A DNA stretch of 29,967 nucleotides from Xenococcaceae cyanobacterium MO_188.B32 (GTDB lineage Bacteria; Cyanobacteriota; Cyanobacteriia; Cyanobacteriales; Xenococcaceae). This document shows positions 1 through 19,448 of the stretch, piece after piece. Position 1 is the stretch's first letter, and each line of letters opens with the position of its first letter. Both the position numbers and the translations under genes were made by a program. The notes below the pieces were generated by a model, which was not told the origin of the DNA, ran no database searches, and worked only from the letters and a program-made list of their open reading frames with translations. Where the stretch lies: positions 1 to 29,967 of the forward strand of contig JASJDJ010000056.1 in the NCBI GenBank assembly GCA_030065635.1, in the 5' to 3' direction.

Positions 1-701
1 CTACTATTCAGTCAGATTTGGATATACCCGACCCATTGCCTCACGGTCACTGTATTGGGTTAGACGTGGGTTTGTTATCCTATTGTGCGACAAGTGATGG
101 TTTTGTTGAACCTGGACGTAAATTTTTCAAGACGCTGTACCGTCGGCTGAAAGTGCTACAAAGCAGACTGTCTAAAAAACAAAAACGCTCCAAGAACTAC
201 GAAAAAGCCAGAAAAAAAGTAGAAGCAATGCACAATCATATTGCCTTCAAGCGTAAAGATTACCAGTTCAAGCTTGCTCATAAACTCTGTGATATGGCAG
301 ATACTATCTTTGTAGAAGATATAGACTTTCGTATCATGGCTAAAGGGTTTCTAGGCAAGCATACGGTTGATGCTGGATTCGGTCAGTTTCGTTCTCTTCT
401 CAAATATGTAGGTAAACGACGCAATGTCTTTGTGGCAGAAGTTGACCACAGAGGCAGTAGTCAGACTTGTCCTAACTGTCGCATTTCTGTCAAGAAGGAG
501 TTAGAGGATAGAGTCCACTCATGTCCTGAGTGTTTGTATGAAACCGACAGAGATATCGCATCGGCTCAAGAACTGTGTAATCGAGGCATAGAAATGCTTA
601 GTACCCAAGGGCTTTGGGGGAAAGAAATAGGCTGTCAAGTCGGGCTGTCGGGGGCATTTTGCCTAGATAAGTGGCGCGGGGCAGCAAAGTCTCTAGCGTG
701 A
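1..701 (+). CDS. tnpB: IS200/IS605-family TnpB (OrfB) RNA-guided endonuclease, C-terminal part. The reading frame is open to the window edge, so the N-terminus lies outside the window.
   Basis: RuvC-I motif GLDVGL, RuvC-II IFVEDI, zinc finger CPNCR...CPEC, RuvC-III DRDIASAQ. Stop codon at 699-701. No in-frame stop between position 1 and the listed ORF start at 18. Confidence 0.8.
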   Translation, partial: TIQSDLDIPDPLPHGHCIGLDVGLLSYCATSDGFVEPGRKFFKTLYRRLKVLQSRLSKKQKRSKNYEKARKKVEAMHNHIAFKRKDYQFKLAHKLCDMADTIFVEDIDFRIMAKGFLGKHTVDAGFGQFRSLLKYVGKRRNVFVAEVDHRGSSQTCPNCRISVKKELEDRVHSCPECLYETDRDIASAQELCNRGIEMLSTQGLWGKEIGCQVGLSGAFCLDKWRGAAKSLA

Positions 702-773
702 GCTGGAGAAGCCCGCTCTCTATCCAAAGGATGAGAGTCGGGAGTAGTCACTTTTAAATTTAATTCTGCTTCG
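560..773 (+). ncRNA. Putative TnpB omega-RNA (right-end RNA): 3' end of tnpB plus the IS right end, with terminal hairpin 712-742 and a possible guide of about 20 nt at 754-773. Boundaries are approximate.
   Basis: Hairpin cccgCTCTCTATCCaaaGGATGAGAGtcggg lies just after the tnpB stop. The same hairpin and the flanking motif ...tcgggagYagtcact recur in the inverted copy at 12612-12662. Sequence diverges from that copy exactly after ...agtcact at 753, which marks the element end. Confidence 0.3.
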
Positions 774-1280
774 GTCTCACTCTTAAACTTTTGCTGGGAT
801 AGCTTGGTTATTTTTTTTTGAATTGATTCAGATTCTTTGGCAATCTTTTTCTCTAGAGAAGCCAAATCTGATTCAGTTCTCGCTTCACTTTTGACTACCA
901 ACCATCTTTGGCGTATTCCTCCATAATTACTTTCTCTTTCTACCCAGCTATAACCAGGTATTTCACTGCTTTTAAATTCTGAATTCAATTGAGTGCTGAC
1001 CAGATTTTTTGCCTCTTTTATTGATAGGGGAACTCTAGGCACGCCATTGGATTTGTTTCAGTAATTCTAAATTCTCTTTACTGTATAAAGCACTATCTCC
1101 TACTATCGTTGTTTCTAATTTCAGTTGTTGGTGATAGTTTTTAGCTATTTGGCCAAACGCTTTTTTATCATTTTGATTCCCCGATGCTATTTCATTAATA
1201 TTGGTATATTGCCATCTCCTGTGACGATTAAATCTAAAATAAATTGTTTTAAATCTGGTCGATGGTGAGTCAGCGCGGTC
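754..1280 (-). pseudogene. IS1634-family (IS4 superfamily) DDE transposase fragment. It is frameshifted and truncated at both ends, and interrupted at about 754 by the tnpB element.
   Basis: ORFs 635..1042 and 1035..1382 on the minus strand read IVGDSALYSKENLELL and GIRQRWLVVKSEARTESDLASLEKKIAKE...QQKF, typical IS1634 motifs, in two different frames. Neither end is intact. Confidence 0.5.
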
Positions 1281-1302
1281 TTGGGGGTTTCCCCCATGAG
1301 CA

Positions 1303-1585
1303 ACTGCGAACCCGATTATTATAAAGACCCTAACCAGGGAGTTAACCCCGATGAAGTAGTTGCTGTGGGTGCCACAATTCAAGCAGGTGTACTAGCAGGA
1401 GAAGTCAAAGACGTACTTTTACTCGATGTTACTCCTCTATCTCTGGGGGTAGAAACCCTCGGTGGCGTGATGACTAAGTTAGTTCCCCGCAACACCACCA
1501 TTCCCGTACAAAAATCAGAAATTTTCTCTACTGCTGCGGACGGACAAACTAACGTGGAAATCCACGTGTTCACCACGGAGTTAAA
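1303..1585 (+). pseudogene. dnaK: dnaK (Hsp70) internal fragment covering the end of the nucleotide-binding domain, the linker and the start of the substrate-binding domain.
   Basis: Translation [75 protein letters not shown] matches the Hsp70 linker region. Only about 95 codons are present, with no credible start or end. Confidence 0.6.
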
Positions 1586-2680
1586 ATATCCGATACTGCT
1601 TTAGTCGCAGCAGCCGTATTTTCCACTCGCTATATTAGCGACCGCTTCTTACCCGATAAAGCGATCGACCTGGTGGACGAGTCAGCAGCTAAATTGAAGA
1701 TGGAGATTACTTCCAAACCAGAAGAACTCGACGAGATCGATCGCAAAATTCTTCAGTTGGAAATGGAAAAACTGTCATTGAAAAAAGAAACAGACAGTGC
1801 CTCGCTCGAACGTTTAGAAAAACTAGAAAAAGAACTGGCAGATCTTAAAGAACAGCAATCTGCTTTAAACGCCCAATGGCAAGCTGAAAAAGAATTTATC
1901 GCTCGCATTCGCGCCATTAAAGAGGAAATCGAGCGTGTTAATGTCGAAATTCAACAAGCAGAACGGGATTACAACCTCAATCGTGCAGCCGAACTCAAAT
2001 ACGGTACCGTTGCTCGTCTGATCGGTGCGCCTCCAGGATACGTCGGTTATGACGAAGGGGGACAACTCACCGAAGCAATTCGCCGTCGTCCCTATGCAGT
2101 AATTCTCTTTGACGAGATTGAAAAAGCCCATCCCGATGTATTCAACACTATGCTGCAAATTCTCGATGATGGTCGCCTTACCGATGCTCAAGGACATACG
2201 GTGGACTTTAAAAATGCGGTGATTATTATGACCAGCAACATTGGGTCACAATATATACTGGATATTGCGGGAGATGACAGTCGCTACGAAGAAATGCGCG
2301 ATCGCGTAATGGATGCCATGGGTGGTAGTTTTCGTCCTGAATTCCTCAACCGCATCGATGAAATTATTATCTTCCACAGTCTCACCAAAGAACAATTACG
2401 CGAAATCGTCAAGCTGCAAGTTCAGTTCCTCGAACGACGACTGGAAGACAAAAAAATGTCCCTCAAGCTATCCGATGCTGCCCTCGATTGGTTGGCAGAA
2501 GTAGGTTACGACCCCGTTTACGGTGCGCGTCCTCTTAAGCGGGCAATTCAAAAAGAGTTAGAAACCCAAATTGCCAAGAAAATTCTGCGCGGTGAGCTTA
2601 AAGATGGAGATACTATTTTTGTGGATGTAGAAAACGAGCGTTTAGTTTTCAAGCGTCTAGCTCGAGAATTAGTAAGTTAA
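1586..2680 (+). pseudogene. clpB: clpB fragment: end of NBD1, the M-domain, and the C-terminal part of NBD2. About 150 codons, including the NBD2 Walker A, are deleted in frame.
   Basis: [39 protein letters not shown]...RAAELKYGT is joined directly to [46 protein letters not shown]...[14 protein letters not shown]. There is no N-terminal domain and no Walker A GPTGVGKT. It is fused to the dnaK fragment in a different frame. Confidence 0.65.
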
Positions 2681-2738
2681 GTAAAATCCTAATTCGGAGT
2701 TTGATTCATTACCAGTAATTAAAAATAAGGAGAGAGCC

Positions 2739-3191
2739 ATGTTACAACAATCTTTAACCGATCGAGTCCCCACCAAAATACCTTGGTTTTGGTTATTTAT
2801 AATCGCAGTAATTGGTAGCTCCTATGGCTGGATGCTAGCTCAATATAACAGCCTATTTGCCTTGATGGTAACTTTGAGTATTACTCTAGCTATAGCGGTC
2901 GTTCGAGCTAGCCATCGGGCCGGGTTTCCTGTTTGGGCAGGGCTGTGGTCATTGACTTTTGGTACTGTATTTATTGCCATAGGAACTTTAATTTCTATCG
3001 GTGCGTTCGGCTGGGCGATCGCAGTTTTTGCCTGGGGAGCAGGGATTTTTCTCTTGGAACTCGCGATCGCAAAGGTTTCAACTGCGATGAATTTACTCGG
3101 GTTCGAGCCAAGCCAAAGCTCACGGATTTTGGCTACCGTTGCAGCAGGAGGGATTATCTCAGGTTGGATCGCACACCTAATTTTAATTTAG
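2739..3191 (+). CDS. Hypothetical integral membrane protein, about four TM helices.
   Basis: 150-aa ORF with good RBS aaggagag 6 nt upstream. Hydrophobic helices. No family recognised. Confidence 0.55.
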   Translation: MLQQSLTDRVPTKIPWFWLFIIAVIGSSYGWMLAQYNSLFALMVTLSITLAIAVVRASHRAGFPVWAGLWSLTFGTVFIAIGTLISIGAFGWAIAVFAWGAGIFLLELAIAKVSTAMNLLGFEPSQSSRILATVAAGGIISGWIAHLILI

Positions 3192-3253
3192 AGTACTTTC
3201 CTGCAAATAAGACTAAATTGAATTTTTGAATTAGAAGATTGGGAGACCTAACT

Positions 3254-3664
3254 ATGACTAAAAATACCTCTGAAACTAAAGAAACAAATATAGTTCCCGT
3301 CAGTACCGAAACCGATGCCCTGGTAGAAAAAGAAATGGCAGGGGAAAGCGAGCAAATCAAGCAAGAAACTAAAGCTTTAGTCGAAGCAATCAAAAAACGG
3401 GCGCAGTCGGAAATTGAAAATGCTCAAACTCTAACACGGTATGCTTACTTAACAGCTGTCCGCAATGCTAGAGAGGCAGTTGAAAAGAACAAACTAATTG
3501 ACCCCAAACGGATCGAACATTCGGTTGAAATTATTCAAAAAGATGCCCGAGAAAATTGGCAAAAAATCGTTGATGAAATCTCCGATTTGGGCGATCGCCT
3601 CCAAGAAGCTGCTCGGGTTGCTTGGGATATCTTAATGGGTAAAAATTCCTCGGGCAAGAAATAA
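3254..3664 (+). CDS. Hypothetical soluble protein rich in charged residues and alpha-helix. The ORF track starts it at TTG 3239.
   Basis: ORF with GGAGA RBS 7 nt before ATG 3254. No recognisable domain. Confidence 0.5.
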   Translation: MTKNTSETKETNIVPVSTETDALVEKEMAGESEQIKQETKALVEAIKKRAQSEIENAQTLTRYAYLTAVRNAREAVEKNKLIDPKRIEHSVEIIQKDARENWQKIVDEISDLGDRLQEAARVAWDILMGKNSSGKK

Positions 3665-3752
3665 TTGCTCTGGGAAAATACCCTAATCAACTAGGGTATA
3701 GGTAGAGACAAGTCCAATGCAGAAAAATGTCAAGCAAGCATAATTACCAACT

Positions 3753-5072
3753 ATGAGTGCCAACATCAATTCCGATACTAACAAGTTAGGCATTTTCTCC
3801 TTAGCAACCTTACTGGTATCCGCTCACTATGGCTTGGGGTTTCTCTTGGGAACTGCCGAACAAGCTAGGCACCAGGGTATACAGGGTAGTCTCTATGCTA
3901 TTTCTATTGGGTTGGGATTTTTGGCTCTGTTAATTTTGGCAAAATTCTACTGGCAGCAAGTAGAACCAATCTGGACTTTATTGGGCAACCGCTATGGTAA
4001 ATCAGTCAAAGTCGGAGTTGGTTTAATGTCCTGGATGTCGTTAATTGGTATTGAGGCGGTACAAATTATCGCAGGGGCAGCAATTCTGGCTGTGGTAGGT
4101 ATCCCTAAAATAACCAGTATGCTGATATTAGCCCTATTATTTTGTTTACTTTCCCTGCTGCCTGTAGAAAAGTTAAGCTGGGTTTTACGGGGCTTATTGT
4201 TGCTCAATATACTGGTTTTAATTTACAGCCTCTGGGCATTACAGGGTTTATCGGTTATGGCACGAGCGCCCGTTGAATTTCTTACTTCCCTGCCTCAAAT
4301 TGCTCCTGGAGATGTCATTGGCATTATCTTCTGCACTATTATGTTAGTGGCGATCGACATGAAGTGTCAGCAATATCTAGTCCGAGCTAAAGATGTGGGT
4401 ACTGCTATCTGGAGTTGCTTTCTTACTGCTGTAACTCTGATTGCTTTAGCTTTACTAGCGGGAACTATGGCGATCGCTGCTCACCAGGCAGGCATTTTAC
4501 CCCCAAATTTAGATGACAAAGAAACGATCCCCTATATTTTAGCTTGGGTGAGCGGTGGCACAGAGAGGTTTTTAGGCATAGTGGCGATTGCTACTTTAGC
4601 AGTTCCCGCCCTGGGTTTGGGTAGTAGCGTGTTGCGGGTACAAACTAGAACTTTTTTCGATCTAGAGATTTTACCTTTCTGGTTGAGCCAGCGCATCTTA
4701 GTAGCAGCTATTAATGTGCTATTAGCCCTAACAATTGCCATCAGAGGCGGAGAAATTGTCGGTTTAATTCTTTTATTTTACGCTGCTTATCTTTCTGCTG
4801 CTTGGATTCCCTTTATTGCCTACCTGCTAGATTATTTTGATGTTTATGCTTTTTCTAATAACAGCGTCAGGTTTTCTTTAATCATAGGCAGCATCTCTGC
4901 TTTAGTCAGTCTCTTACTAATATTAGTTCGACCTGAAGCCGTATTTCTAGGGAGCGATCGCTTAACTATAACAGTCTTAGGTATGGGTATGGCAACTATG
5001 AGTCTTGTAGTTAATGAATTGGTAGAAAAATTACTTCTTGCTCCTGCGGTAAAAAAAGAAACTGACAACTAA
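3753..5072 (+). CDS. Polytopic membrane transporter with 12-13 TM helices, possibly a sodium:solute symporter-like or other secondary carrier.
   Basis: 439-aa ORF, very hydrophobic with regularly spaced helices. The family is not resolvable by eye. Confidence 0.55.
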   Translation: MSANINSDTNKLGIFSLATLLVSAHYGLGFLLGTAEQARHQGIQGSLYAISIGLGFLALLILAKFYWQQVEPIWTLLGNRYGKSVKVGVGLMSWMSLIGIEAVQIIAGAAILAVVGIPKITSMLILALLFCLLSLLPVEKLSWVLRGLLLLNILVLIYSLWALQGLSVMARAPVEFLTSLPQIAPGDVIGIIFCTIMLVAIDMKCQQYLVRAKDVGTAIWSCFLTAVTLIALALLAGTMAIAAHQAGILPPNLDDKETIPYILAWVSGGTERFLGIVAIATLAVPALGLGSSVLRVQTRTFFDLEILPFWLSQRILVAAINVLLALTIAIRGGEIVGLILLFYAAYLSAAWIPFIAYLLDYFDVYAFSNNSVRFSLIIGSISALVSLLLILVRPEAVFLGSDRLTITVLGMGMATMSLVVNELVEKLLLAPAVKKETDN

Positions 5073-5105
5073 TAATTAACCTTAACTCGAGCGATAATAC
5101 AAAAA

Positions 5106-5273
5106 ATGTTGGTAGAAATCGGTAAAACCCCGGTCATTCTTGGTATAGGAATTGTAGTTCTGGGAGGATTATTGTGGCTCAGTGGGGGAACTTTAAAAAA
5201 CTTGCCCCTCGATCGTCTTCCAGGAGACATTTTAATTCAAATACTATTGTCGCCCCGACAGTTGGTCTATTAA
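5106..5273 (+). CDS. DUF2905-family small membrane protein, 55 aa. It is below the ORF-track size cutoff.
   Basis: MLVEIGKTPVILGIGIVVLGGLLWLSGGTLKNLPLDRLPGDILIQILLSPRQLVY has two TM segments and the LPGDI motif typical of DUF2905. Its 3' end overlaps the convergent gene that ends at 5244. Confidence 0.5.
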   Translation: MLVEIGKTPVILGIGIVVLGGLLWLSGGTLKNLPLDRLPGDILIQILLSPRQLVY

Positions 5274-6497
5274 TTCTAATTGACAATGGATTTCTTGTCG
5301 AACTTTTTTCAGTTCGGAGAGGTTTTCTATTTCTGAAGAGTTAAAACAGGTACGCATTGTAGTTAGAGTTTTTGTGAGTTTTTGAGCGAGTAGTAAGGCT
5401 CGATCGCTCATTTTTTTGATTTGTTGCCGTTCGTGGAGTTTTAAAGCTTTCCCTCTTAAAACCTGAATGGTAATTTCATCTCCCCATTGACTGGGACAAG
5501 CATCAATACGTAACTGTAAACGCTCCTGTTGATAGTGTCTTTCGATCGCTACTTTCTTAGTTTTTTGTAGTGGTTCTAGAGGGAATTTAGCTAAAGTTTT
5601 AATTTCGTTAATTAGGGCTTGAAAAATAGACAGAGATACATCATCTACAGAAGATTGAACAATTCCATCTTGACTCCAGAGGATACGACCTCGATCGCGA
5701 TTTCGCTCTAAATTTAATTTACTTATACTACCATTGAGGATATTGGCGAACAGCTCTTGCCATAATTGTTGAGGAGTCAGCGTTTTGAGAGATTCATGAG
5801 TTAAGCAGTAATTCTCAGATAGTGTCGAGATATCAAAATCTAAAAAGGGGTCTAAATCTAGATTTGGCACCCGTTCGCGATTTTGGTCGGACTCGGATTT
5901 CTTGGACTGACGATTTGGTTCGGTCTGAACTTCGGGTACTAAAGCTAGATCGAGAGTTAAATCGGCAAAAAGTTGTGAGAAAGAATCGGCTTCGGCAGTA
6001 TCTTCCTGAATAGGAGCATAGATAGTAGATTTACTATCTTCGGCTGATATTTCTGGTCTACTTGTCGGGTTTTCTAAGTCTTCGGCTATTATAGTTTCTT
6101 TACTATCAAGGTCATTCTCTTGACTGTTTAGATTAGACTCAAAGGGCATATCGACCACAGTCATTGCTGAATCCTGAGATTTTTTGACAGAAGTTTGAGG
6201 TGAAATATCTGCCTGTGTTTGCTCCATAGTATGGTTCTGTTTGAGATAGGCAGCTAAAACCAACTGATGAGCGTAAGAATCTATACGCTGAATATTAAGA
6301 GTGTAACCTAAAGCACGAACTATTGGACGGACAAAGTCTAAGGCAGTTTTGTCTTCAGGATTGACCATACCCAAGGTCAAACAATCCTGTTCGAGAGATA
6401 AGGGTATAATCTGATACTGTAAACAATGTTCTAAACTCAAAATAGACTGTATTAAATTGATTATTTGTTCATAATCAATATCTGAAGTTTCATTCAT
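5244..6497 (-). CDS. GspE/PilB-like protein with N1 (T2SSE_N) and N2 domains, an acidic linker and no ATPase core.
   Basis: N-terminus IIPLSLEQDCLTLGMVNPEDKTALDFVRPIVRALGYTLNIQRID matches T2SSE_N. C-terminus RILWSQDGIVQ...RLQLRIDACPSQWGDEITIQVLRG resembles the N2 domain of PilB/GspE. No Walker motifs. Confidence 0.5.
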   Translation of the reverse strand: MNETSDIDYEQIINLIQSILSLEHCLQYQIIPLSLEQDCLTLGMVNPEDKTALDFVRPIVRALGYTLNIQRIDSYAHQLVLAAYLKQNHTMEQTQADISPQTSVKKSQDSAMTVVDMPFESNLNSQENDLDSKETIIAEDLENPTSRPEISAEDSKSTIYAPIQEDTAEADSFSQLFADLTLDLALVPEVQTEPNRQSKKSESDQNRERVPNLDLDPFLDFDISTLSENYCLTHESLKTLTPQQLWQELFANILNGSISKLNLERNRDRGRILWSQDGIVQSSVDDVSLSIFQALINEIKTLAKFPLEPLQKTKKVAIERHYQQERLQLRIDACPSQWGDEITIQVLRGKALKLHERQQIKKMSDRALLLAQKLTKTLTTMRTCFNSSEIENLSELKKVRQEIHCQLELIDQLSGRQ

Positions 6498-6689
6498 GGG
6501 AATATTTTATAGTAAATAACACAGTTGAAAATCTGTGAGCTTTAGCTGTTGGAGTATCAAATTAAAGATTATGAATTTAATTTACCCAGATCGACCAAAA
6601 AATCGATCGAACTAACTCTTATTTGTTACTAGCGAGTAGCGTAATAGTGATTAAATAAAGCTAATCTCGATATTTTAATTTTTTAACTT

Positions 6690-7517
6690 ATGACTAATTC
6701 ATCTTCCATCCCAGTTGTAGTCAATGGTGCTGCCGGTAAAATGGGGCGCGAGGTAATTAAAACTGTTTCTCAGGCAGAAGATATGATGCTTGTCGGTGCG
6801 ATCGATCGCAACCCTGATGTTCTCGGTCAAGATGCAGGGGAAATAGCTGGTTGTGGTGAGATAGAAGTTCCCATCGTTAACGATCTTCAAAGTGTTTTGG
6901 TTTTAGCTACTCAGGAGAAAATTCAAGGGGTAATGGTAGATTTTACCCATCCTGATAGTGTCTATGATAATGTACGTAGCGCGATCGCCTATGGTGTACG
7001 TCCAGTAGTAGGGACAACAGGGTTGAGTGACGAACAACTGCAAGATTTGGCTGAATTTGCGGAAAAAGCTAGTACGGGAGCTTTAGTAATTCCTAATTTT
7101 TCCATTGGTATGGTTTTACTACAGCAAGCAGCCATTCAAGCTTCTCAATATTTCGATCATGTAGAGATTATTGAGTTACATCATAATCAGAAAGCAGATG
7201 CTCCTAGTGGAACGGCTATTAAAACGGCGCAAATGTTAGCAGAGTTAGGTAAAACTTATAATCCTCAAGTGGTTGAAGAAACAGAACCTTTAAAAGGTGC
7301 AAGAGGTAGTATAACAGAAGAGAATATTCGTATCCATAGTGTACGGTTACCTGGTTTAATCGCTCATCAAGAAGTTATTTTTGGCGCACCCGGTCAAATT
7401 TATACTCTCAGACACGATACCAGCGATCGATCTTGCTATATGCCAGGAGTTTTACTCGCTATCCGTAAAGTCACTCAACTTACTTCTTTGGTTTATGGTT
7501 TAGAAAAAATATTGTAA
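6690..7517 (+). CDS. dapB: 4-hydroxy-tetrahydrodipicolinate reductase.
   Basis: [16 protein letters not shown]-binding motif, [18 protein letters not shown], and the overall length are typical of DapB. Confidence 0.9.
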
Positions 7518-7537
7518 TAACTCCGAACTCCGAACTA

Positions 7538-8236
7538 ATGCTAATATCTCTTACTCGCGAAAAATTCGAGCAAATAATTCCCCTAATTGCTACGGGCCCT
7601 CAATATGCCTATTATTGGGGTAAATGGCAAGATTTATTAAATCGTTTACTTGTTTCTGTAGTAGCTATAGTCGTAATCTTACTCTTCAACAGCATAGTAG
7701 GGGAAGGCGCACACGCTTTAGTGTTGTTGTTAGCGGTAATTGGTGGTTTGTATTGGCTTTGGGCTCCTGTTTATTGGGCTAGTTTACGCAATACTAGTTA
7801 CCGCAAGTATAAATATTGTGGCTTTTGGCAAGCTAGGATCCTAGAAATATTTATCACTGAAGACTTGCTTAGGGAAGAAGAGACTGTCAATGAAAGAGGA
7901 GAGCTAGTAATTATTGAGAATCGGGAAAGACGAATTAATCTTGTACTTGGTGATGAAACTGGATTTGAAGCAGAAGTAAATGCTCCTTTGCAGCGTATTC
8001 ATAAAGCAATTAAAACAGGTCAAACTGCTCAATTATTAGTGCTGTCGAATCAACCTAACCTTGCCAGAATTGATAAAATTACCGATGCTTATATTCCTAG
8101 TCAAAATCTTTGGATTGGCGAATATCCTTGGCTACAAAGGGATGTTTTCAGTGAAGTAAGTTTGGAATTAGAGAGGAAAAAAAGACCGCAATATGGCGAT
8201 CGCCCTCGTGGTAGATATAATCAACGTCGTCGGTGA
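7538..8236 (+). CDS. Hypothetical protein with two N-terminal TM helices and a basic C-tail. It resembles conserved cyanobacterial hypotheticals, but I cannot name the family.
   Basis: 232-aa ORF immediately downstream of dapB on the same strand. Confidence 0.5.
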   Translation: MLISLTREKFEQIIPLIATGPQYAYYWGKWQDLLNRLLVSVVAIVVILLFNSIVGEGAHALVLLLAVIGGLYWLWAPVYWASLRNTSYRKYKYCGFWQARILEIFITEDLLREEETVNERGELVIIENRERRINLVLGDETGFEAEVNAPLQRIHKAIKTGQTAQLLVLSNQPNLARIDKITDAYIPSQNLWIGEYPWLQRDVFSEVSLELERKKRPQYGDRPRGRYNQRRR

Positions 8237-8273
8237 TAGAATGGTTTTTGAGTAACAAAGAAAAAAAATTACA

Positions 8274-8336
8274 CTAACTACTAACTACTAACTACTAACT
8301 ACTAACTACTAACTACTAACTGCTAACTACTAACTA
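8274..8336. repeat. Tandem heptanucleotide array (CTAACTA) with 9 copies, one of them variant CTAACTG. It is of the STRR type.
   Basis: Seen directly in the sequence. It fills the gap between convergent genes 7538..8236 and 8339..9100. Confidence 0.9.
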
Positions 8337-8338
8337 GT

Positions 8339-9100
8339 TTATTTAATCCAACCAAGTCTTGTAGGTTGCTGATATATCTTTTTAAGAGTATTGATATCTC
8401 TAGCAGAAATCGGCGGAAAGTCGCGAACTTGAGAGAAATAAAGAGCATCATTTTGATGGGGACTATGACCCCAAATTCCTAAGGCATGACCGAGTTCATG
8501 ACGAGTAGCAGCTAAAATTGCCTGCTGACTTAAATTGGGAGAAACTTTAATAGTCATGCGATGGGATAGAATTTTGTGGTCTTGCCAATAAAATTGGTAG
8601 CTAGTTTGGGCAGTTATAGCGCGAGGAATATCATAAAGTCTTGTAGCTGGATTGTATTTAACTTTCCTTTCTGGGGTCGATCGCGTGATGATAATATCAG
8701 CTAGTTCTGGATTTTCTATTTCTTGTAGAGGTAGATAGATATTCCATTCGGCGATCGCTTTTTTGACGGCTTCTAACCATTGCTGCTGACGAAGGTTACT
8801 AGCAGAATTATCTGGTGATTCGGTTGGTTTGGCCAAATAAATTTTAACGGGAAATTGTGACCAAATTAAATAACCCAAAGGAGTTGGTTTGATTTGGGTA
8901 AAGTAATCTTCTTGGTTATTTTTATTGTCCCAGTGAGCTAGAGAAGTAGGTAGAGGGTGTACTTTCGCCAGAGGTAATAAACTGCTATCTAGATTATTTA
9001 ATTTTTGCTCTGCTTTTAAAACATTGTGATTTAAAATTATGACCAATATAATTGTCGCGATCGCTATAAATTTGATTCTTAATGACCACCCTAGAATCAT
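8339..9100 (-). CDS. Secreted or membrane-anchored zinc metalloprotease of the metzincin/M10-like type.
   Basis: HELGHALGIWGHS matches the HExxHxxGxxH zinc-binding motif. Hydrophobic N-terminal signal or anchor. Confidence 0.65.
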   Translation of the reverse strand: MILGWSLRIKFIAIATIILVIILNHNVLKAEQKLNNLDSSLLPLAKVHPLPTSLAHWDNKNNQEDYFTQIKPTPLGYLIWSQFPVKIYLAKPTESPDNSASNLRQQQWLEAVKKAIAEWNIYLPLQEIENPELADIIITRSTPERKVKYNPATRLYDIPRAITAQTSYQFYWQDHKILSHRMTIKVSPNLSQQAILAATRHELGHALGIWGHSPHQNDALYFSQVRDFPPISARDINTLKKIYQQPTRLGWIK

Positions 9101-9285
9101 AAACTAACCCTGAAAAGCTAAACCCTCTGTCACAATTGCCTACAAGTATTTTGAAGAATTGTTTTCCCCACTCCATCGTTTTCAAAATTTTATCCTATAC
9201 GGCTAAGCGGAAAGTATCTATTAAAGCCTTAGTATTACTGGCAATTATTATCAATTTAGTGAATCAGTGACACACTTACCATTTT

Positions 9286-10116
9286 ATGAAATCTAAATTA
9301 TTACAAAATCTCGCTGCCAAATTGAGTAAGGCTTCTTCAATAGTCAGGATAGTATTTTTACTAATTTGCTTAGTTTTAATATGGTTGCCTTTGGCAGCAC
9401 CAATCTATTTATTACTGAATGAAGACCCGAATTTAGTAACAATCTTAACAATGGGATTGTTATTTGTTGAGTTTTTATTTTTACTGCAATTTTGGGGTAA
9501 ATATGTCGATCGAGAAACCAATTTATTAGTCAAGTATGGTTTAGTCCGCACAAAAAAAAATGGTATTGAGTTAGTTAATGGTTTAGCGATTGGTTTTTCT
9601 TTTTGTATTAGTTTATTTATTCTGGAAGCAATTTTGGGTTGGGTTAAATTTAATACTCCTTCAGTTTTTTTTGTCAAAATAGTTGTAGAAGGATTACTGA
9701 GTGCTTTGGGGATTGGTTTTGCGGAGGAGTTATTTTTTCGCGGTTGGATACTAGAAGAGTTGCAAAGAGACTATACAAGAGAAATTAGTGCTTGGATTAA
9801 TGCTGTAATTTTTGCTTTGGCTCATTTTATTAAACCACTAGCAGAAATACTTCGTACTTTTGTTACTTTTCCTGCTCTAGTTGTTCTAGGGTTGACTTTA
9901 GTATGGGCAAAATGGAAAGGGGGCGATCGCCTGGGTATGTCTATTGGTCTTCATGCAGGTTTGGTTTGGGGTTACTATATTCTCAATATAGGACAGCTAT
10001 TGCAATATACTGAGAAAGTTCCAGTTTGGGTTACAGGCATTGACGGTAACCCGATCGCGGGTTTAATGGGATTATTTTTTTTGAGTATATTAGCTTGGTG
10101 GATGAGGGGAACTTAG
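9286..10116 (+). CDS. CPBP-family intramembrane glutamic protease (CAAX protease, Abi-like).
   Basis: FAEELFFRGW motif and FALAHF motif in a polytopic membrane protein. Confidence 0.75.
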   Translation: MKSKLLQNLAAKLSKASSIVRIVFLLICLVLIWLPLAAPIYLLLNEDPNLVTILTMGLLFVEFLFLLQFWGKYVDRETNLLVKYGLVRTKKNGIELVNGLAIGFSFCISLFILEAILGWVKFNTPSVFFVKIVVEGLLSALGIGFAEELFFRGWILEELQRDYTREISAWINAVIFALAHFIKPLAEILRTFVTFPALVVLGLTLVWAKWKGGDRLGMSIGLHAGLVWGYYILNIGQLLQYTEKVPVWVTGIDGNPIAGLMGLFFLSILAWWMRGT

Positions 10117-10195
10117 GAGCTTCAGGGGCAGAGGGACAGGGGAGCAGAGGAGCTTCAGGGGCAGGGGAGAGCAGAGAGGCAGAGGGAGAAATAAA
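10116..10195. repeat. GA-rich low-complexity stretch with a duplicated 16-mer ggagcttcaggggcag at 10116 and 10149.
   Basis: Seen directly. It follows the CPBP stop. Its translation is low-complexity and it does not look coding. Confidence 0.7.
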
Positions 10196-10228
10196 TAATT
10201 TTTATTCTAGCTACTTAAATTAATTAAA

Positions 10229-10705
10229 ATGCGATCGCAAAAACACAAAATCGATTATTCTACAAGTAAATTATTAATTATTGGTTGGCGAGAAATTGTT
10301 GCTTTACCCAATTTAGGTATTAGTCAGATTAAAGTAAAAATTGATACAGGGGCGCGATCTTCTGCTTTACACGCTTTTCATCTACACAAATTTCAGCGTG
10401 ATGGTCAAGAAATGATTAGTTTTCAAGTTCATCCCTATCAGCGAGATAGTAAGCAGACTGTAACTACAGAAGCAAAATTATTAGAACATAGAGAAGTACG
10501 TAATTCTGGTGGAGAAGCTCAACTTCGCCCCGTAATCCTTACTAATGTAGAATTAGGTGGTAAGCAGTGGGAGATCGAACTTACTCTTACAAATCGTGAT
10601 GTCATGGGATTTCGGATGTTATTGGGTAGACAAGCAGTGCGCGATCGATTTCTGGTCGATCCAGGAAAATCATTTATCCAAAGTCGCCAGCATAAAGAAA
10701 AATAG
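10229..10705 (+). CDS. RimK-associated ATP-dependent zinc protease family protein (retropepsin-like, DUF785).
   Basis: [35 protein letters not shown] and the position immediately upstream of rimK. Confidence 0.7.
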
Positions 10706-10731
10706 TAGAAGTCAAAAATAAAGTATACAAG

Positions 10732-11637
10732 ATGAAAATTGCTATTCTATCGCAAGACCCTTGTCTTTACTCAACTAGAAGGCTTAGAGAAGCAGGAGAA
10801 GCCCAAGGACACGATATGCGGGTGATTAATTATCTGCGCTGCTATATGAATATTACTTCCCACCGACCGTCCGTTGCTTACAATGGTAAACCTCTAGAAG
10901 ATTTTGATGCCATTATTCCCAGAATTGGTGCATCTAAAACCTTTTATGGTACGGCAGTAGTCCGTCAATTTGAAGTGATGGGAGTTTTTCCCACTAACGA
11001 ATCTCAGGCAATTTCTCGTTCTCGCGATAAGCTACGCAGTATGCAAATTTTAGCTAGAGAAGGAGTAGGCTTACCCGTAACCGGATTTGCCCACGCTACC
11101 CAAGATATTGACGGTTTAATCGAAACGGTAGGAGGTGCGCCTTTAGTAATTAAGTTACTCGAAGGAACACAGGGAATAGGGGTAGTTTTAGCAGAAACTT
11201 ATCAAGCAGCTAAATCGGTAATTGAAGCCTTTCGCGGTTTAGATGCCAATATTTTAGTACAAGAGTATATTAAAGAAGCTCAAGGAGCAGATCTACGCTG
11301 TTTTGTGATTGGAGGCAAAGTGATAGCAGCCATGAAACGTCAAGGGGCTGAAGGAGAATTTCGTTCTAATCTTCATCGGGGAGGAAAAGCCGAAAAAATT
11401 AAATTAACCCCAGAAGAAAGAAGTACTGCTATTCGGGCTGCTAAAGCTATGGGTTTGCGAGTAGCTGGAGTAGATTTATTACGTTCTAATCATGGTCCGG
11501 TAGTGATGGAAGTTAATTCTTCTCCTGGGTTAGAAGGTATTGAAAAAGCAACAGAAATAGATGTAGCTGGCAAAATAATTGAATATGTAGCCAAAAATGC
11601 TATTTCAGGGAAAACTCGCGATCGCATTCAGTATTAG
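10732..11637 (+). CDS. rimK: Ribosomal protein S6 L-glutamate ligase (ATP-grasp).
   Basis: MKIAILS...[21 protein letters not shown]...[23 protein letters not shown]...[10 protein letters not shown] are RimK ATP-grasp motifs. Confidence 0.9.
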
Positions 11638-11657
11638 GGATTGGGGATTAGGGAAAA

Positions 11658-12611
11658 TTGGAAGCGAATACCATTGAAATTGCCAAAGAAATTATAGAAC
11701 CAGGGCGATCGCGTCGTTTCGATATTCCCGTCAGTCGTCTACCCACCCAAACTTTATTATCTCTACCTGTTACTGTTGTTAATGGTATTGAAGCAGGGCC
11801 TAAATTATGGCTTAGTGCAGCAATTCACGGTGATGAACTCAACGGTGTAGAAATTATTCGTCAGGTATTAGCCCAAATACAACCAGAACAGTTGCGGGGT
11901 ACTCTAATTGCCGTCCCCATTGTTAATGTTTTTGGTTTTATCGAACAATCTCGTTATTTACCTGACAGAAGAGATTTAAATCGTTCCTTTCCTGGTTCGG
12001 AAACTGGTTCTTTGGCATCTCGTTTGGCAAATTTATTTGTGAGAGAAATAGTAAGCAAAAGTACTCACGGCATTGACTTACATACGGCTGCTATTCATCG
12101 CATTAATCTACCGCAAATTCGGGCTAATCTTGAGGATGGGGAAACTTATCGCTGTGCCAAGGCTTTTGGTACGCCAATTATTATACACGCCACAACTAGA
12201 GATGGTTCTTTACGACAGGCAGCAACCAAAAAAGGTATTCCGATCTTACTTTACGAAGCAGGAGAAGCTTTACGTTTCGATCCTATAGCTATTCGCGCTG
12301 GAGTAGAAGGCATCCTCAGAGTTATAGAATATTTGCAAATGTATCAATTTGATTCTCTTTCTATTCCCTCTACTCCTACAGAAATAAGACAGAGTAAATG
12401 GATTAGGGCATCTAGAGGAGGAATTTTTCATCTAGAAGTTACCTTGGGGGAAAAAGTTGCCAAAAAACAATCGTTAGGCTTTATTACCGATGCCTTTGGC
12501 GAAAATAAAGTTATAGTTCGTGCTAACGTCGAGGGGATAGTTATCAGTCATATTCAGAATCCTCTGGTTAATCAAGGGGATGCGATCGTACACTTAGCAG
12601 TAATCGAATAG
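11658..12611 (+). CDS. Succinylglutamate desuccinylase/aspartoacylase (AstE/AspA) family zinc hydrolase, the third member of the rimK module. It has a TTG start.
   Basis: AAIHGDELNG, DLNRSFPG and DLHTA motifs. 317 aa. The TTG at 11658 is preceded by gggaaaa. Confidence 0.75.
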   Translation: MEANTIEIAKEIIEPGRSRRFDIPVSRLPTQTLLSLPVTVVNGIEAGPKLWLSAAIHGDELNGVEIIRQVLAQIQPEQLRGTLIAVPIVNVFGFIEQSRYLPDRRDLNRSFPGSETGSLASRLANLFVREIVSKSTHGIDLHTAAIHRINLPQIRANLEDGETYRCAKAFGTPIIIHATTRDGSLRQAATKKGIPILLYEAGEALRFDPIAIRAGVEGILRVIEYLQMYQFDSLSIPSTPTEIRQSKWIRASRGGIFHLEVTLGEKVAKKQSLGFITDAFGENKVIVRANVEGIVISHIQNPLVNQGDAIVHLAVIE

Positions 12612-12895
12612 AGTGACTGCTCCCGACGCTCTATCCGTAGGATGAGCGCGGGCTTCTCTAACTCACGCTAGAGATTTTGCTGCCCCGCGCCACTTATCTA
12701 GGCAAAATGCCCCCGACAGCCCGACTTGACAGCCTATTTCTTTCCCCCAAAGTCCTTGGGTACTAAGCATTTCTATACCTCGATTACACAGTTCTTGAGC
12801 CGATGCAATATCTCTGTCAGTTTCGTATAGACACTCAGGACAGGAGTGGATTCTATCCTCTAGTTCTTTCCCTACACTTTGGATTTGTCGTAAAC
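12612..12895 (-). pseudogene. tnpB: Second copy of the IS200/IS605 element, right end (12612-12662) plus the last ~70 codons of tnpB only. It is inverted and truncated by the adjacent MITE-like element.
   Basis: The reverse complement is about 90% identical to 500-753, reading ...LEDRIHSCPECLYETDRDIASAQELCNRGIEMLSTQGLWGKEIGCQVGLSGAFCLDKWRGAAKSLA*. The hairpin 12622-12652 is conserved. The right end abuts the stop of the AstE-family gene. Confidence 0.8.
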
Positions 12896-12897
12896 AC

Positions 12898-12998
12898 TAA
12901 TTATAATGGCATCGCCGGGAGGGGGCTTGAAAACAAAGTTATTCAATTGGGCAGCACAACCAGGGTCTGATTAAGCCCCCTTCCCGCCATTATAATTA
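12898..12998. mobile_element. MITE-like 101-bp non-autonomous element with perfect 13-bp terminal inverted repeats (taattataatggc / gccattataatta) and inner inverted repeats atcgccgggagggggctt / aagcccccttcccgcc.
   Basis: Seen directly. The ends can be read as TA plus attataat TIRs (Tc1/IS630-like) or as an 8-bp palindromic target duplication. A degenerate relative lies at 21690-21771. Confidence 0.6.
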
Positions 12999-13067
12999 GT
13001 TTGGGGGAGTCCATGGATCCCGACTCCTATCCGAAGGATAGGAGCGGGACTTATAGCTCCCCCAAAC
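12999..13067. repeat. 69-bp palindromic element with 11-bp inverted ends gtttgggggag / ctcccccaaac. It encloses a hairpin (13019-13048) related to the tnpB right-end hairpin.
   Basis: cccgaCTCCTATCCgaaGGATAGGAGcggg compared with the right-end hairpin cccgCTCTCTATCCaaaGGATGAGAGtcggg. This is the third copy of this hairpin family in the window. Confidence 0.55.
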
Positions 13068-13146
13068 CCCCTCAAAGGTTAAAAGTCAAACGTTTATTTC
13101 GGTAGAGTTACTTATCTAATCTGTTTGCCAAAATTTTGATGAATAA

Positions 13147-14049
13147 TTGAGGTTGAACGATTTACTGGTTAACAAAAATAAAATGACTCTCCAACAAAAT
13201 CTGGAAAATCATCTCAGACAAATTGTAAGGGAACGCGACCCCTATCTTGCTTCTGGAGGACATTTTTTCGTTAAAGAATATATTCGCCAGCAATTAGAAC
13301 AATGGGGAGACGTAGAAACTCATGAATTTGAGGTCAGAGGAAACAAATATCAAAATCTTATTCTCAATCTTATTTCCGAACAAAATAAAAATTTACCTCC
13401 AATTTTAATCGGCGCACATTATGATGCAGTACCAGGAACACCTGGTGCAGATGATAATGCTACAGGGGTAGCCGTATTATTGGAGTTGGCATCAGCTTTT
13501 GTCTGTAATCCACCTCCCTATCCCATTCAATTGGTGGCTTTCGATCTCGAAGAATGTCTACTGTTTGAGGGCGAAAACTATTGTTTATCGGGAAGTAGGG
13601 CTTATGCAGAATATCTTTATCACCAGAAACAACCTTTGCGTTTGATGTTGTCTTTGGAGATGTTAGGATATTGCGATCGCACCAATAATTCCCAACAATA
13701 TCCAGCCGACTTTCTCAAATACTTCTATCCAAACCGCGGTGACTTTATTGCTTTAGTAGGCAATCTCAAAACTCTTCCCGATTTGATTCGCCTAGATAGA
13801 AAAATTCGTCACTCTGGTACTCCCTGTCGATGGTTAGCTTCACCTAATAACGGTAATTTTATTAATGCAACTAGAAAGAGCGATCATAGTCCTTTTTGGG
13901 ATCGGGGTTATCGCGCCATAATGGTGACAGATACAGCTTTTTTACGCAATCCTCACTACCATAAAGCTAGCGATACTATAGAAACATTGGATTTCGATTT
14001 TCTTACTAGCGTCTGTCAGTCTTTGATTGCAGCCATACCCTATCTTTAA
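13147..14049 (+). CDS. M28-family zinc aminopeptidase. The alternative start is ATG 13183.
   Basis: GAHYDAVPGTPGADDNATGVAVLLELA, the M28 metal-ligand region, and DHSPFWDRG. Confidence 0.75.
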   Translation: MRLNDLLVNKNKMTLQQNLENHLRQIVRERDPYLASGGHFFVKEYIRQQLEQWGDVETHEFEVRGNKYQNLILNLISEQNKNLPPILIGAHYDAVPGTPGADDNATGVAVLLELASAFVCNPPPYPIQLVAFDLEECLLFEGENYCLSGSRAYAEYLYHQKQPLRLMLSLEMLGYCDRTNNSQQYPADFLKYFYPNRGDFIALVGNLKTLPDLIRLDRKIRHSGTPCRWLASPNNGNFINATRKSDHSPFWDRGYRAIMVTDTAFLRNPHYHKASDTIETLDFDFLTSVCQSLIAAIPYL

Positions 14050-16181: not shown

Positions 16182-16393
16182 TCATCTGTGACAAGTTAAG
16201 AAACTACGTTGTTTGTCAATAGCGTGATTGGACATGGCGAAAAAGCACAAATCAGTGATGTTATAAATTTAAAATGAAAGCTAGATTTATTCATGGGTAG
16301 TTCAAATGGATATTTAGTCGTAATTACAACTCATCTGTAACACTAGTTGAAAAATCATTCGACTCAGTTATAGGATGAATTAAACCCAGAAAG

Positions 16394-16654
16394 ATGAAGA
16401 CAATTCTGATCCTATCAGCTAACCCTAAAGGAACATTTAGTCTGGAGCTCGATCGAGAGATTCGCGACATCCGAGAAGCAGTGGACAAGCAGGGTTCAGA
16501 TTATCAAGTCAAATCTAGAGTGGCTGTCCGACGCAAAGACTTGGAATCTGCCTTGCTCAATAAAAAATCATCAGATCTTTTAAAATTATTCTCGGTCAGG
16601 ATTTTTCATTTATTAACGATCGCTTGTGCAATACGGCTAAGCTATTACCATTAG
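16394..16654 (+). pseudogene. Degraded 5' remnant of a caspase-like (CHAT-type) effector domain gene.
   Basis: MKTILILSANPKGTFSLELDREIRDIREAV...RVAVRRKDLESALL matches the conserved start of cyanobacterial caspase-like domains (ILILAANPKDT..LRLDEEVREI...VHFSGHG). The His motif region is garbled and the frame stops. There is no downstream continuation. Confidence 0.45.
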
Positions 16655-16864
16655 TTCCTCTAGTAGAAGGAATGGAATCTGTAAGCAGCAGACTGGCAAA
16701 TGTTCAAAAATTTCAGGAGGGAATTAGTTCTTTAAAAGAACTGAAAGATCGCTTAATCCCACATTCATCAGCCCCCTTTATGTAATAAAACAGATTACGC
16801 CATTTAGAGGGTTTGGCGTACGCTATTTTCTCTTGGCGATCGCGCTTGGCGTAATTACCGCCAA

Positions 16865-17128
16865 TTGGCGATCGCCAAATCAAAGTTCTCCCTTTTTGGC
16901 GATCGCGCTCTTTGTGATCTACTGAAAGTAGGTTCTCTTGACAGTCGCGGACTGGCTAGGGCTTTAACAGGAAATATTCAAGGAGCGATCGATGACTTTC
17001 AAGAGTATGTTAAGTCTCCTCACAGAGCGGAAAGGTATAAAAGCAAGCGTCAACAATGGATTGAGGCTCTTAAAAAGGGAGAAAATCCGTTTACCGATGA
17101 GGTTTTAGAGGATTTGAAGAATGAGTGA
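16865..17128 (+). CDS. Hypothetical 87-aa ORF, possibly a C-terminal relic of the degraded gene upstream. Its coding status is uncertain.
   Basis: It begins inside a cluster of three extended HIP1 sites. The C-terminal half ...RQQWIEALKKGENPFTDEVLEDL looks protein-like. Confidence 0.25.
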   Translation: MAIAKSKFSLFGDRALCDLLKVGSLDSRGLARALTGNIQGAIDDFQEYVKSPHRAERYKSKRQQWIEALKKGENPFTDEVLEDLKNE

Positions 17129-17416
17129 CTACTAATCTCGTCGTGATTTCAGTTTGCTCCCACACCTTCCCAAACTGAGTCAGATAAACTTTAGACAGCT
17201 TTAATCACTGACTAATTTTTTACCATTGGAGACAGAGGAAAATACTATCTAAAATGGAGGAAGAGGACTCCCGACTAAACCGACGTAGTCGGTTAGCGGG
17301 AGACGGGGCTTTTAAAGTGCTTAAGTAAATTCAGCACGCAGCCCCTCATGAATTCCGACAAAAAAACAAACGGCGAGAGTCGTCAATAAGTAAACATGGC
17401 TAGATAATCGATAATC

Positions 17417-17683
17417 ATGAATCGCGCTATCAAACCAGTCCTCGGAACAATTTCTCTGTTTGGTTTAATTTTGACTGTCCTGGTGCTACAAGCTGGAGGA
17501 TGGAATAATTTTAAACTGCGCTATTTTCATCTAACTAGCTATTTTCACAGCCAAGAGCGAGAGTTAGAAGATATTCGCGCTGATAATCTCAATCCAGTTG
17601 AATCTAGCCGTATCGATCTATCGGAACTACTCAATGTCGCGCTGATAATACCCTCTACTCTCAACCTTGGGGGATGGGCATAG
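17417..17683 (+). CDS. Hypothetical small protein with one N-terminal TM helix. Its coding status is uncertain.
   Basis: 88-aa ORF whose composition looks natural. It lies in an otherwise ORF-poor region. Confidence 0.25.
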   Translation: MNRAIKPVLGTISLFGLILTVLVLQAGGWNNFKLRYFHLTSYFHSQERELEDIRADNLNPVESSRIDLSELLNVALIIPSTLNLGGWA

Positions 17684-18698
17684 TCGGTAAAGCAGTCAAT
17701 TCCCATCTCGTTAGAATTCCCGCATTCAAAACTACTCTGGGCAATTGGTTAAAACAATACCCTGATAGTCAAATTTTAGCTTGGCGAGTGGGAAGCCCCG
17801 CTCCTTGTCGCTCTGCGACAGGAGTCGGGATGAAAACGAGCGCGACAACTTATCGGTCATCGGTTGACAATTTTGAGACAAAATCTTTATGGAACAAGGA
17901 TTCTGGTCGTTGTATAATACATTTGAGCGTATCAATGGGTCGCTAGCTACCGAAGATCGGATAAACAAAAACCTAAAGCTAGCAAGCACCTTGACAATCA
18001 AACATATGGGGTTGCAACCAAAAAATAGTCTCGGTTGGGGACTCGGTGGTTGCGTAAAATGTTTGCCGTACAAAGGAAGCATTTTTAAAACTGTACCCAG
18101 GGACGCTGGGGAATGGAAACTGCCTGCTGACAGCGTACTGTCGGAGATGCATGATGCTTGCATTGTTCATCTAGATAAGTGCTACGCAGGAATACCTAGG
18201 TCGTGAGTCTAGGGAAGCCAGCACCTTATCCGTTAGGATAGGTGTATGGAGAACGTCACCAACAGATACGGGCTACAACCGTGATTATCAACGCTATCCC
18301 TATGGGACTTATTATACGGATGAGCGAATTATTTTCCCCGTTCGCAACCAACGCAATCTAAAATATCATCCCAAAACCATTGTTAGTTACATCTGGGAAA
18401 CGGATACTCAAACACCAAAGAATCAGTTTTCTGGTGCAAGCACTCGATTTAACCACGGGCAACTACAACAAATTGGCGAAAAAATAGTCGAATTTAATGG
18501 TCGTCAAATTAAAGCATATTGGGATAAACAACTAGAAACCGTCGTCGTGACAGAAATGGACGGTACAATTATTCGCAGTTCGACAGCTTTTGCTTTTGTT
18601 TATCCTGCTTACTTCGAGCGATAAAATTCGTTTTACACAAACCGCTTCCTCTCTCATATTTACCAGGGCTATTTCATTCTCAGCAGCCAGATAATAAA

Positions 18699-19448
18699 TT
18701 ATCTGTCTAAGTGTACTAAGTCGTCTTTTTTGTTCCAGTCACTCAATATATCTTTTATCAAAACTTCTTCAATCCATACTCGGGCGACAACCGCTAGTGG
18801 TAATGCTAAAAATAAACCAATAAAACCGAAAAAGACGGCAAAAGTAGCTTGTGCTAGTAAGGTAACTGCTGGCAGCAAAGAAACCTGCCGTTTCATAACT
18901 AAAGGAGTAAGAATGTTACTCTCAGCCTGTTGAATTAAAATATAAAGTATTAGCACCGCCACCGCTTTCCAGGGTGCATCACTCAAAGCTAGAACTATTG
19001 GCGGGATACAGCTTATAGTAGGACCTAAATTGGGTATAAAAGTTAACAAGCCAGCTAAAAGTGCATTAGCCAAAGGAACTTGCACTTGCAAAATTGATAA
19101 ACCCAGCCAGCTAAGAATGGTAATAACTAGCATATTAAACAGAATTCCCCGAGTCCAACCGACTAAAGCTATTTCACATTTTTTGAGAATTCTGGCAGCA
19201 CGACGACGATAGAAGGAAGGGAAGAAAACTAAAAACAAACGTATATAGGGACGAGGGTTAGCTAGTAACATAATCATGACTACCGTAACCAGAAGTATAT
19301 TTAAAATAACTCCTAGCGAACCCGAAAAAATATCATAAAAATTACCTACAAGCTGAGTTGCCACGCTAGGTAAATTACGAGTAATATTTTCTAGCTTTTG
19401 AATTTCTCCTACTAGCTGTTCGGGAACTTTCTTTTGTAACCACATCAA
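18699..19448 (-). CDS. AI-2E family transporter (UPF0118/PerM-like). The short form of 249 aa appears to lack the usual N-terminal ~100 aa.
   Basis: The C-terminal two-thirds show the AI-2E pattern (...LLTFIPNLGPTISCIPPIVLAL...). TTG start. The upstream frame is open, but it is not hydrophobic. Confidence 0.65.
   Translation of the reverse strand: MMWLQKKVPEQLVGEIQKLENITRNLPSVATQLVGNFYDIFSGSLGVILNILLVTVVMIMLLANPRPYIRLFLVFFPSFYRRRAARILKKCEIALVGWTRGILFNMLVITILSWLGLSILQVQVPLANALLAGLLTFIPNLGPTISCIPPIVLALSDAPWKAVAVLILYILIQQAESNILTPLVMKRQVSLLPAVTLLAQATFAVFFGFIGLFLALPLAVVARVWIEEVLIKDILSDWNKKDDLVHLDR

Follow-up and report, generated by a model that had tools for sequence, protein, structure and literature searches.

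Chaperone Gene Fragments at the Locus

In the window (i.e., the whole stretch of 29,967 nucleotides that was analysed), one fragment of dnaK and two fragments of clpB stand head to tail on the plus strand, with insertion sequence (IS) debris confined to their left and the native 3′ flank of clpB on their right. The dnaK fragment (1323–1567, plus strand) corresponds to residues ~354–435 of a 628-aa orthologue, so that the nucleotide-binding domain is represented by its end and the substrate-binding domain by its first strands, with the linker between them. The ORF in which it resides (1281–1604) matches Pfam HSP70 over profile positions 352–440 (E 1e-36); homology to dnaK starts abruptly at ~1321–1323 and runs to ~1567. 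A dnaK piece of about 95 codons, as given in the original prediction, is thereby confirmed in its presence and shortened in its extent, as true homology covers roughly 82 codons and the first 14 codons of the ORF are an IS-derived motif, not dnaK. By blastn, the fragment (window 1323–1563) is colinear with positions 1922–2162 of contig L099, which carries an intact dnaK, at 81% nucleotide identity. Against TIGR02350 (prok_dnaK), it scores 151 bits, compared with the cut-off of 822.6 for DnaK/Hsp70 membership, and profile positions 350–432 of 596 alone are present; in total, 13% of dnaK survives in the window. A homologue search with the 89-aa dnaK piece returned short fragments alone (≤86% identity) and was uninformative for context.

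The clpB piece opens at VHHGV (1568), in a reading frame other than that of dnaK. Using the 872-aa ClpB of contig L098 as the reference orthologue, clpB fragment 1 (1568–2005, plus strand) comprises residues 361–506, i.e., the NBD1 lid and most of the M-domain coiled coil, whereas clpB fragment 2 (2006–2680, plus strand) comprises residues 648–871 and the native stop codon, i.e., the rest of NBD2 and the D2-small domain. Fragment 1 matches AAA_lid_9 and fragment 2 matches AAA_2 (profile positions 45–166, the C-terminal two thirds) and ClpB_D2-small in Pfam; the Walker B motif DEIEKAH and the sensor motifs are kept in fragment 2. Compared with the solved structure 1qvr (Thermus thermophilus ClpB), the frame covers residues 350–498 and then jumps to 631–850. 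These Pfam and structure matches bear out the earlier claims that the dnaK piece runs out of frame straight into clpB and that the clpB sequence extends from the end of NBD1 through the M-domain. At the nucleotide level, fragment 1 is 85.6% identical to L099 (5212–5650) and 86.5% identical to L094 (138–573), and fragment 2 (window 2006–2686) is 86.3% identical to L099 (6073–6752).

In total, 42% of clpB survives. The score against TIGR03346 (chaperone_ClpB) is 555.6 bits, compared with the curated cut-off of 1232.1 for a ClpB disaggregase, and the architecture of N-domain, NBD1, M-domain, and NBD2 is incomplete, with the regions equivalent to residues 361–506 and 648–871 alone being present. 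Both Walker A P-loops, GEPGVGKT and GPTGVGKT (positions 208 and 611 of the L098 orthologue), fall within the missing segments, and the NBD1 Walker B motif is also in the lost parts; a protein devoid of NBD1 and of the NBD2 P-loop cannot be ClpB. The clpB-derived frame is open for 370 codons. Gene callers start the clpB stub at an ATG, giving 326 aa and not 335 aa; for this reason, an exact look-up of the 335-aa ORF came back empty.

Breakpoints and Their Reproducibility

Junction A, where dnaK meets clpB (1563–1570, plus strand), is out of frame; the two sides share 0–3 nt of microhomology, or else the junction contains a filler of up to 4 nt. Its position follows from a register comparison with three contigs (L094, L095, and L099) and with IHVL, the consensus in other DnaKs; CACGTG fits this common DnaK motif, and therefore at most GTT (3 nt) is common to both sides of the junction. 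In comparison with an intact operon, ~3,049 nt (~3.05 kb) is lost at junction A, namely ~190 codons at the 3′ end of dnaK, dnaJ and cbpM in their entirety, and codons 1–360 of clpB; as the frames differ across the junction, no fusion protein is encoded. Junction B lies within clpB (2005–2006, plus strand) and is in frame with 1 nt of microhomology; exactly 423 nt (141 codons, residues 507–647) is missing, so that the M-domain has lost its end and NBD2 its first part, the Walker A motif (GPTGVGKT) included. The deletion previously placed at ELKYGT is clean and in frame and removes the NBD2 Walker A motif as described, and its length is corrected from ~150 to 141 codons. No direct or inverted repeats beyond chance-level 10–13-mers were found at the breakpoints, the short direct repeats considered for the deletion junction included; for example, the pair ACCAGGGAGTTAA / ACCACGGAGTTAA at 1333 and 1572 coincides with no junction. 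Similarly, no IS sequence was found at junction A or B, and no further pieces of dnaK, dnaJ, cbpM, or clpB were found, either in the 30-kb window or in the 7 kb that contig L001 adds upstream of it.

Contigs carrying the locus were retrieved via the neighbouring 150-aa gene, and three of them span the fragments: L001 (a 37-kb scaffold, ERZ23486758), L002 (GCA_013332675.1), and L003 (ERZ23486739), which represent three other metagenome assemblies from at least two biosamples. L002 is 100% identical to the window over 615–6218 and L003 over 671–6242, with every junction covered, and L001 shows a single mismatch over 183–13191 (13,009 nt); all junctions are 100% identical in the three contigs. 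Gene callers report the same stub pair on L001–L003, i.e., a 102-aa Hsp70 and a 326-aa ClpB. The assemblies disagree only to the left of ~183, inside a repeated tnpB element (window 1–183 versus L001 7215–7445), where tnpB of L001 is truncated at window position 70, a GC-rich insert of 45–48 nt follows window position 179, and the first 69 nt of the window have no match to L001. The assemblies probably incorporated different copies or variants of the IS at the left end of the window.

Mobile-Element Debris

The 5′ end of the dnaK fragment abuts a stack of IS debris. The window begins inside a tnpB gene of the IS200/IS605 family, the 3′ part of which (1–701, plus strand) matches Pfam OrfB_IS605 and Cas12f1-like_TNB as well as NCBIfam guided_TnpB (positions 191–389 of 389). 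An internal remnant of an IS1634-family transposase gene (770–1266, minus strand) follows, in which both ends are absent and a frameshift results in two ORFs; it covers positions 183–322 of 483 in NCBIfam NF033559, far below the curated cut-off, and has blastn matches to annotated IS1634 transposases on cyanobacterial plasmids. Next to dnaK stands a dispersed cyanobacterial motif of ~50 nt with the palindrome TGGGGGTTTCCCCCA (1262–1315, plus strand), which supplies the LGVSPMSN start of ORF 1281–1604. Matches of 85–97% to this motif occur on 12 cyanobacterial plasmids (Nostoc, Tolypothrix, Fischerella, Stanieria), and in Stanieria NIES-3757 it falls within the last codons of an annotated IS605 OrfB gene (…VLGVSPMSN…); the motif is probably left over from the 3′ end of a further IS605-family element, and its conservation across distant genera suggests that it functions in that IS group as an RNA or DNA element. 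IS debris is thus present beside the chaperone fragments as had been noted, in the form of three upstream remnants rather than two.

The genes that precede dnaK in relatives (a 160-aa gene, YfdX, and others) were found in neither the window nor L001. The left side is therefore rearranged and not merely interrupted, and the 5′ end of the operon together with its promoter region was lost in an IS-associated rearrangement.

Elsewhere in the window, the 3′ end of tnpB (494–752, the gene end and ~50 nt downstream) recurs as an inverted repeat at 12612–12870 with 91.5% identity. The repeated copy stands alone as a remnant, flanked by an AstE_AspA-like gene and a Peptidase_M28 gene, and is probably the right end (omega-RNA region) of another copy of the same IS605-family element. 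The stretch at 16200–18650 comprises ~2.4 kb with no ORF longer than 143 aa, and its ORF 16394–16654 (MKTILILSANPKGT…) resembles a short N-terminal stub; more decayed genes may be present there. On the minus strand at 18699–19448, an AI-2E-family transporter ORF matches only profile positions 117–326 of 327 and may be 5′-truncated. The window is cyanobacterial, with 28 HIP1 octamers (GCGATCGC) compared with 0.46 expected, and Rfam and tRNA scans of it gave no matches.

Intact Operons in Related Cyanobacteria

An intact operon on a single strand is found in L099, where dnaK (628 aa, 863–2749), dnaJ (334 aa, 2781–3785), cbpM (101 aa, 3782–4087), and clpB (4132–6750) follow one another, and the same gene order recurs in L098, L100, L101, and L095. 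The contigs with the operon were reached via a search with the small MerR_2 (CbpM/HspR-like) gene, which has many cyanobacterial homologues. The closest ClpB in the protein collection (P0010, 89% identity) is encoded on the short contig L008, where a dnaJ-like gene and a small MerR_2 (CbpM/HspR-like) gene closely precede it; a genome-contig scan with this ClpB was swamped by universally conserved patterns and yielded only some six to ten loci from cyanobacteria, all of them lacking the operon. The one-strand arrangement dnaK-dnaJ-cbpM(MerR_2)-clpB is present in a group of uncultured cyanobacteria (L095, L098, L099, L100, L101; L008). No grpE was seen in the cyanobacterial version of the operon, and a literature search on the dnaK-dnaJ-cbpM-clpB operon in cyanobacteria found nothing relevant. 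In Pleurocapsa PCC 7319 (L096), hsp20-dnaJ-cbpM occurs alone, with no dnaK or clpB alongside. In L095 (11434–13000), clpB is split by frameshifts into three called genes with the translation out of frame, and these frameshifts are probably long-read assembly errors rather than biology.

The blastn blocks of the window on L099 all follow one order on one strand, and the window is colinear with the intact operon at 81–86% nucleotide identity. Synteny with the intact clpB loci is anchored by the native downstream neighbours, a 141-aa gene and a 439-aa gene (3239–5072, plus strand). In L099 and L098, clpB is followed by a CBS-domain gene and then by a homologue of the 141-aa gene, which in L099 (7352–7786) is 85% identical to window 3238–3666 in nucleotides by blastn. 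The closest relative found, the 3.7-kb contig L094, was recovered in a metagenome scan with the 439-aa gene of the window and is 90.7% identical in nucleotides over window 3238–4525; this contig carries an undeleted clpB, immediately followed by counterparts of the 141-aa gene (83% aa identity) and the 439-aa gene (93% aa identity).

Directly after clpB, the window carries a 150-aa membrane-protein gene (2739–3191), which is not at that position in L099, L098, and L095, where the CBS-domain gene is found. No homologue of this gene was detected in L094, and a 67% identical homologue precedes the 141-aa and 439-aa genes in L089; the gene content right after clpB therefore varies among relatives.

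Sequence Evolution and Age of the Lesions

In a codon-level comparison with intact orthologues, dS amounts to 0.7–0.9, and dN/dS is 0.107 in the dnaK fragment against 0.045–0.07 in the clpB fragments. In Tajima relative-rate tests, the window lineage shows no significant excess of amino-acid changes (15 vs 11 and 14 vs 12), and where the four intact sequences in the comparison all agree, only two changes are specific to the window. Neither a raised dN/dS nor a faster lineage, by which relaxed selection on a pseudogene may be recognized, is seen; given no excess of amino-acid change and an open frame of such length, the lesions are recent relative to the divergence from relatives. Judged from the sequences, low dN/dS and flat rates would fit a very recent pseudogene, and would also be compatible with continued constraint on the 326–335-aa ORF. 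No sigma-70-like site was found upstream of the fragments on the plus strand. Moreover, in a search of 5.8 billion proteins, the deleted ClpB form (P0001) and the dnaK fragment (P0121) each occur only as the sequence of their own population, on 3 contigs each; the deleted form is confined to one clonal population.

Origin of the Remnant

With high confidence, the region represents what is left of a four-gene heat-shock operon, dnaK-dnaJ(cbpA-like)-cbpM(MerR_2/HspR-like)-clpB, at its ancestral chromosomal position in a cyanobacterium; this remnant is young and non-functional. The fragments have clear homology to functional genes but are truncated or disrupted compared with the intact orthologues, and their gene order is common to loci in which the gene is intact, as the 141-aa gene, the 439-aa gene, or both lie downstream in L094, L099, and L098. 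The operon was gutted in place by two deletions and insertion-sequence damage, which is ordinary gene decay, and a young pseudogene in an IS-rich genome is an event of a type already known. The pairing of dnaK with clpB, which the original prediction regarded as curious in view of the DnaK-interacting M-domain, arose because the two are operon neighbours that were brought together by one ~3-kb deletion, and a functional explanation becomes unneeded.

Three lesions account for the present state, in the following presumed order. The 5′ 353 codons of dnaK and the region upstream of the operon disappeared where mobile elements accumulated, i.e., the IS605-type end scrap, the truncated IS1634 transposase gene, and the tnpB element. 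A single illegitimate (microhomology-level) deletion of ~3.05 kb fused dnaK codon ~435 to clpB codon 361; with it went the rest of dnaK, both dnaJ and cbpM entire, and, from clpB, the N-domain together with the ATPase core of NBD1. A second deletion of 423 nt within clpB removed the NBD2 Walker A motif, and its in-frame state is a 1-in-3 accident. Replication slippage or end-joining is the presumed mechanism of the deletions. The remnant is presumably not expressed, and other dnaK/clpB paralogues, usual in cyanobacteria, are assumed to cover the function.

Other origins have been weighed against in-place decay of the operon. That the remnant is a decaying copy of a duplicated operon, with an intact and near-identical dnaK-dnaJ-cbpM-clpB elsewhere in the same genome, is very unlikely. 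Intact operons (L100, L101) do occur in the sample series of the window-identical contigs, and L101 and L006 both stem from ERZ23486763; however, the intact operons are merely 81–86% identical to the fragments, no protein >90% identical to the fragments was found except the fragments themselves, and L099 and L098, for which the downstream flank was recovered, carry their own 141-aa orthologue, which argues for the orthologous locus of another organism and not for a paralogue. An intact locus with >99% identity, the sign of a very recent duplication, is not found, as the nearest intact copies (85–86% DNA identity) belong to other organisms; from the earlier suggestion of a decaying duplicated chaperone locus, the decay is retained, and the duplicate is replaced by a native operon at its orthologous position. 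Still less likely is a maintained and expressed ClpB derivative encoded by the 326–335-aa ORF (1673/1700–2680), which would act as a DnaK-binding or ClpB-poisoning modulator and would consist of the M-domain coiled coil, NBD2 without its P-loop, and the D2-small domain. Although the 370-codon open frame, the in-frame deletion at junction B, the low dN/dS, and the lack of rate acceleration are consistent with such a protein, the low dN/dS mostly reflects the long pre-deletion period (dS 0.7–0.9), and one deletion in three is expected a priori to be in frame; moreover, the deleted form is limited to one clonal population, no promoter-like site lies upstream on the plus strand, and NBD1 and the NBD2 Walker A motif are lost. 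Less likely again is the variant in which a P-loop-less ClpB stub with a DnaK-docking M-domain and a C-terminal oligomerisation domain is expressed; if true, this stub would act as a modulator or poison of whatever ClpB/DnaK bi-chaperone system the cell retains.

The order, strand, and spacing of the pieces match the intact operon, and the 3′ end of clpB with its stop codon runs into the same downstream gene as in relatives with an intact clpB. In the face of this arrangement and of junctions A and B free of IS sequence, it is exceedingly unlikely that mobile elements captured or shuffled the pieces, or that these are template-switching reverse-transcriptase copies of abundant heat-shock mRNAs inserted here, even with three IS-derived remnants immediately upstream and the pieces aligned head to tail on one strand. 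A segment that is foreign to its flanks and bounded by an IS end on either side, as in a composite transposon, is not observed; the earlier option of IS-mediated capture or shuffling is abandoned, and the template-switching cDNA origin was dropped once synteny was established. The probability of an assembly chimera at the contig edge, which had also been proposed, is practically negligible: the window does start inside a repeated IS, and the assemblies disagree left of ~183, yet only one of 13,009 nt differs in L001 from 183 onward, every junction is matched at 100% identity by L002 and L003, and identical junctions in three other assemblies contradict a misassembly.

In-place decay of a pre-existing operon by deletions fully accounts for what appeared as an eye-catching chaperone “mosaic”, which is thereby a clean negative. 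The proper annotation is that of a pseudogene, as opposed to the short Hsp70 (102 aa) and ClpB (326 aa) of the current gene-caller output. Minor side values are the documentation of a dnaK-dnaJ-cbpM-clpB operon for a cyanobacterial group and the base-resolved, microhomology-poor deletion junctions from an IS-rich genome.

Comparison with Known Systems

In Actinobacteria, a dnaK-(grpE)-dnaJ-hspR operon exists together with an HspR-controlled clpB, and cbpA-cbpM/hspR chaperone clusters are also known. The operon of the cyanobacterial relatives resembles the dnaK-(grpE)-dnaJ-hspR and cbpA-cbpM clusters in that dnaK is accompanied by a co-chaperone gene of the dnaJ type and by a small gene of the MerR family (Pfam MerR_2; called CbpM/HspR in the sources), and in these relatives clpB comes directly after the cluster on the same strand. 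The window differs from such clusters in that dnaJ and cbpM are gone, and 13% of dnaK and 42% of clpB are left. Beyond cyanobacteria, dnaK lies 4–7 kb upstream of clpB on the same strand in loci L016, L026, L027, L029, L039, L044, and L045; five of them (L016, L026, L027, L029, and L045) have a dnaJ-like gene between dnaK and clpB, L044 has a dnaJ-like match downstream of dnaK, and L039 has no dnaJ-like match.

ClpB-79/80 is a natural, N-terminally shortened ClpB isoform that is produced from an internal start with both ATPase modules complete. The window ORF is likewise a shorter ClpB-derived frame with an M-domain; in contrast to ClpB-79/80, it is devoid of NBD1 altogether and of the NBD2 P-loop. 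Deletion- and IS-associated pseudogenes occur in IS-rich bacterial genomes, and the locus shares with them the truncated conserved genes beside IS debris, the clean, low-homology junctions, and the intact orthologues in close relatives. From these pseudogenes it differs in nothing substantive; what is unusual is that pieces of two famous chaperone genes were fused by one deletion and that the second deletion happens to be in frame.
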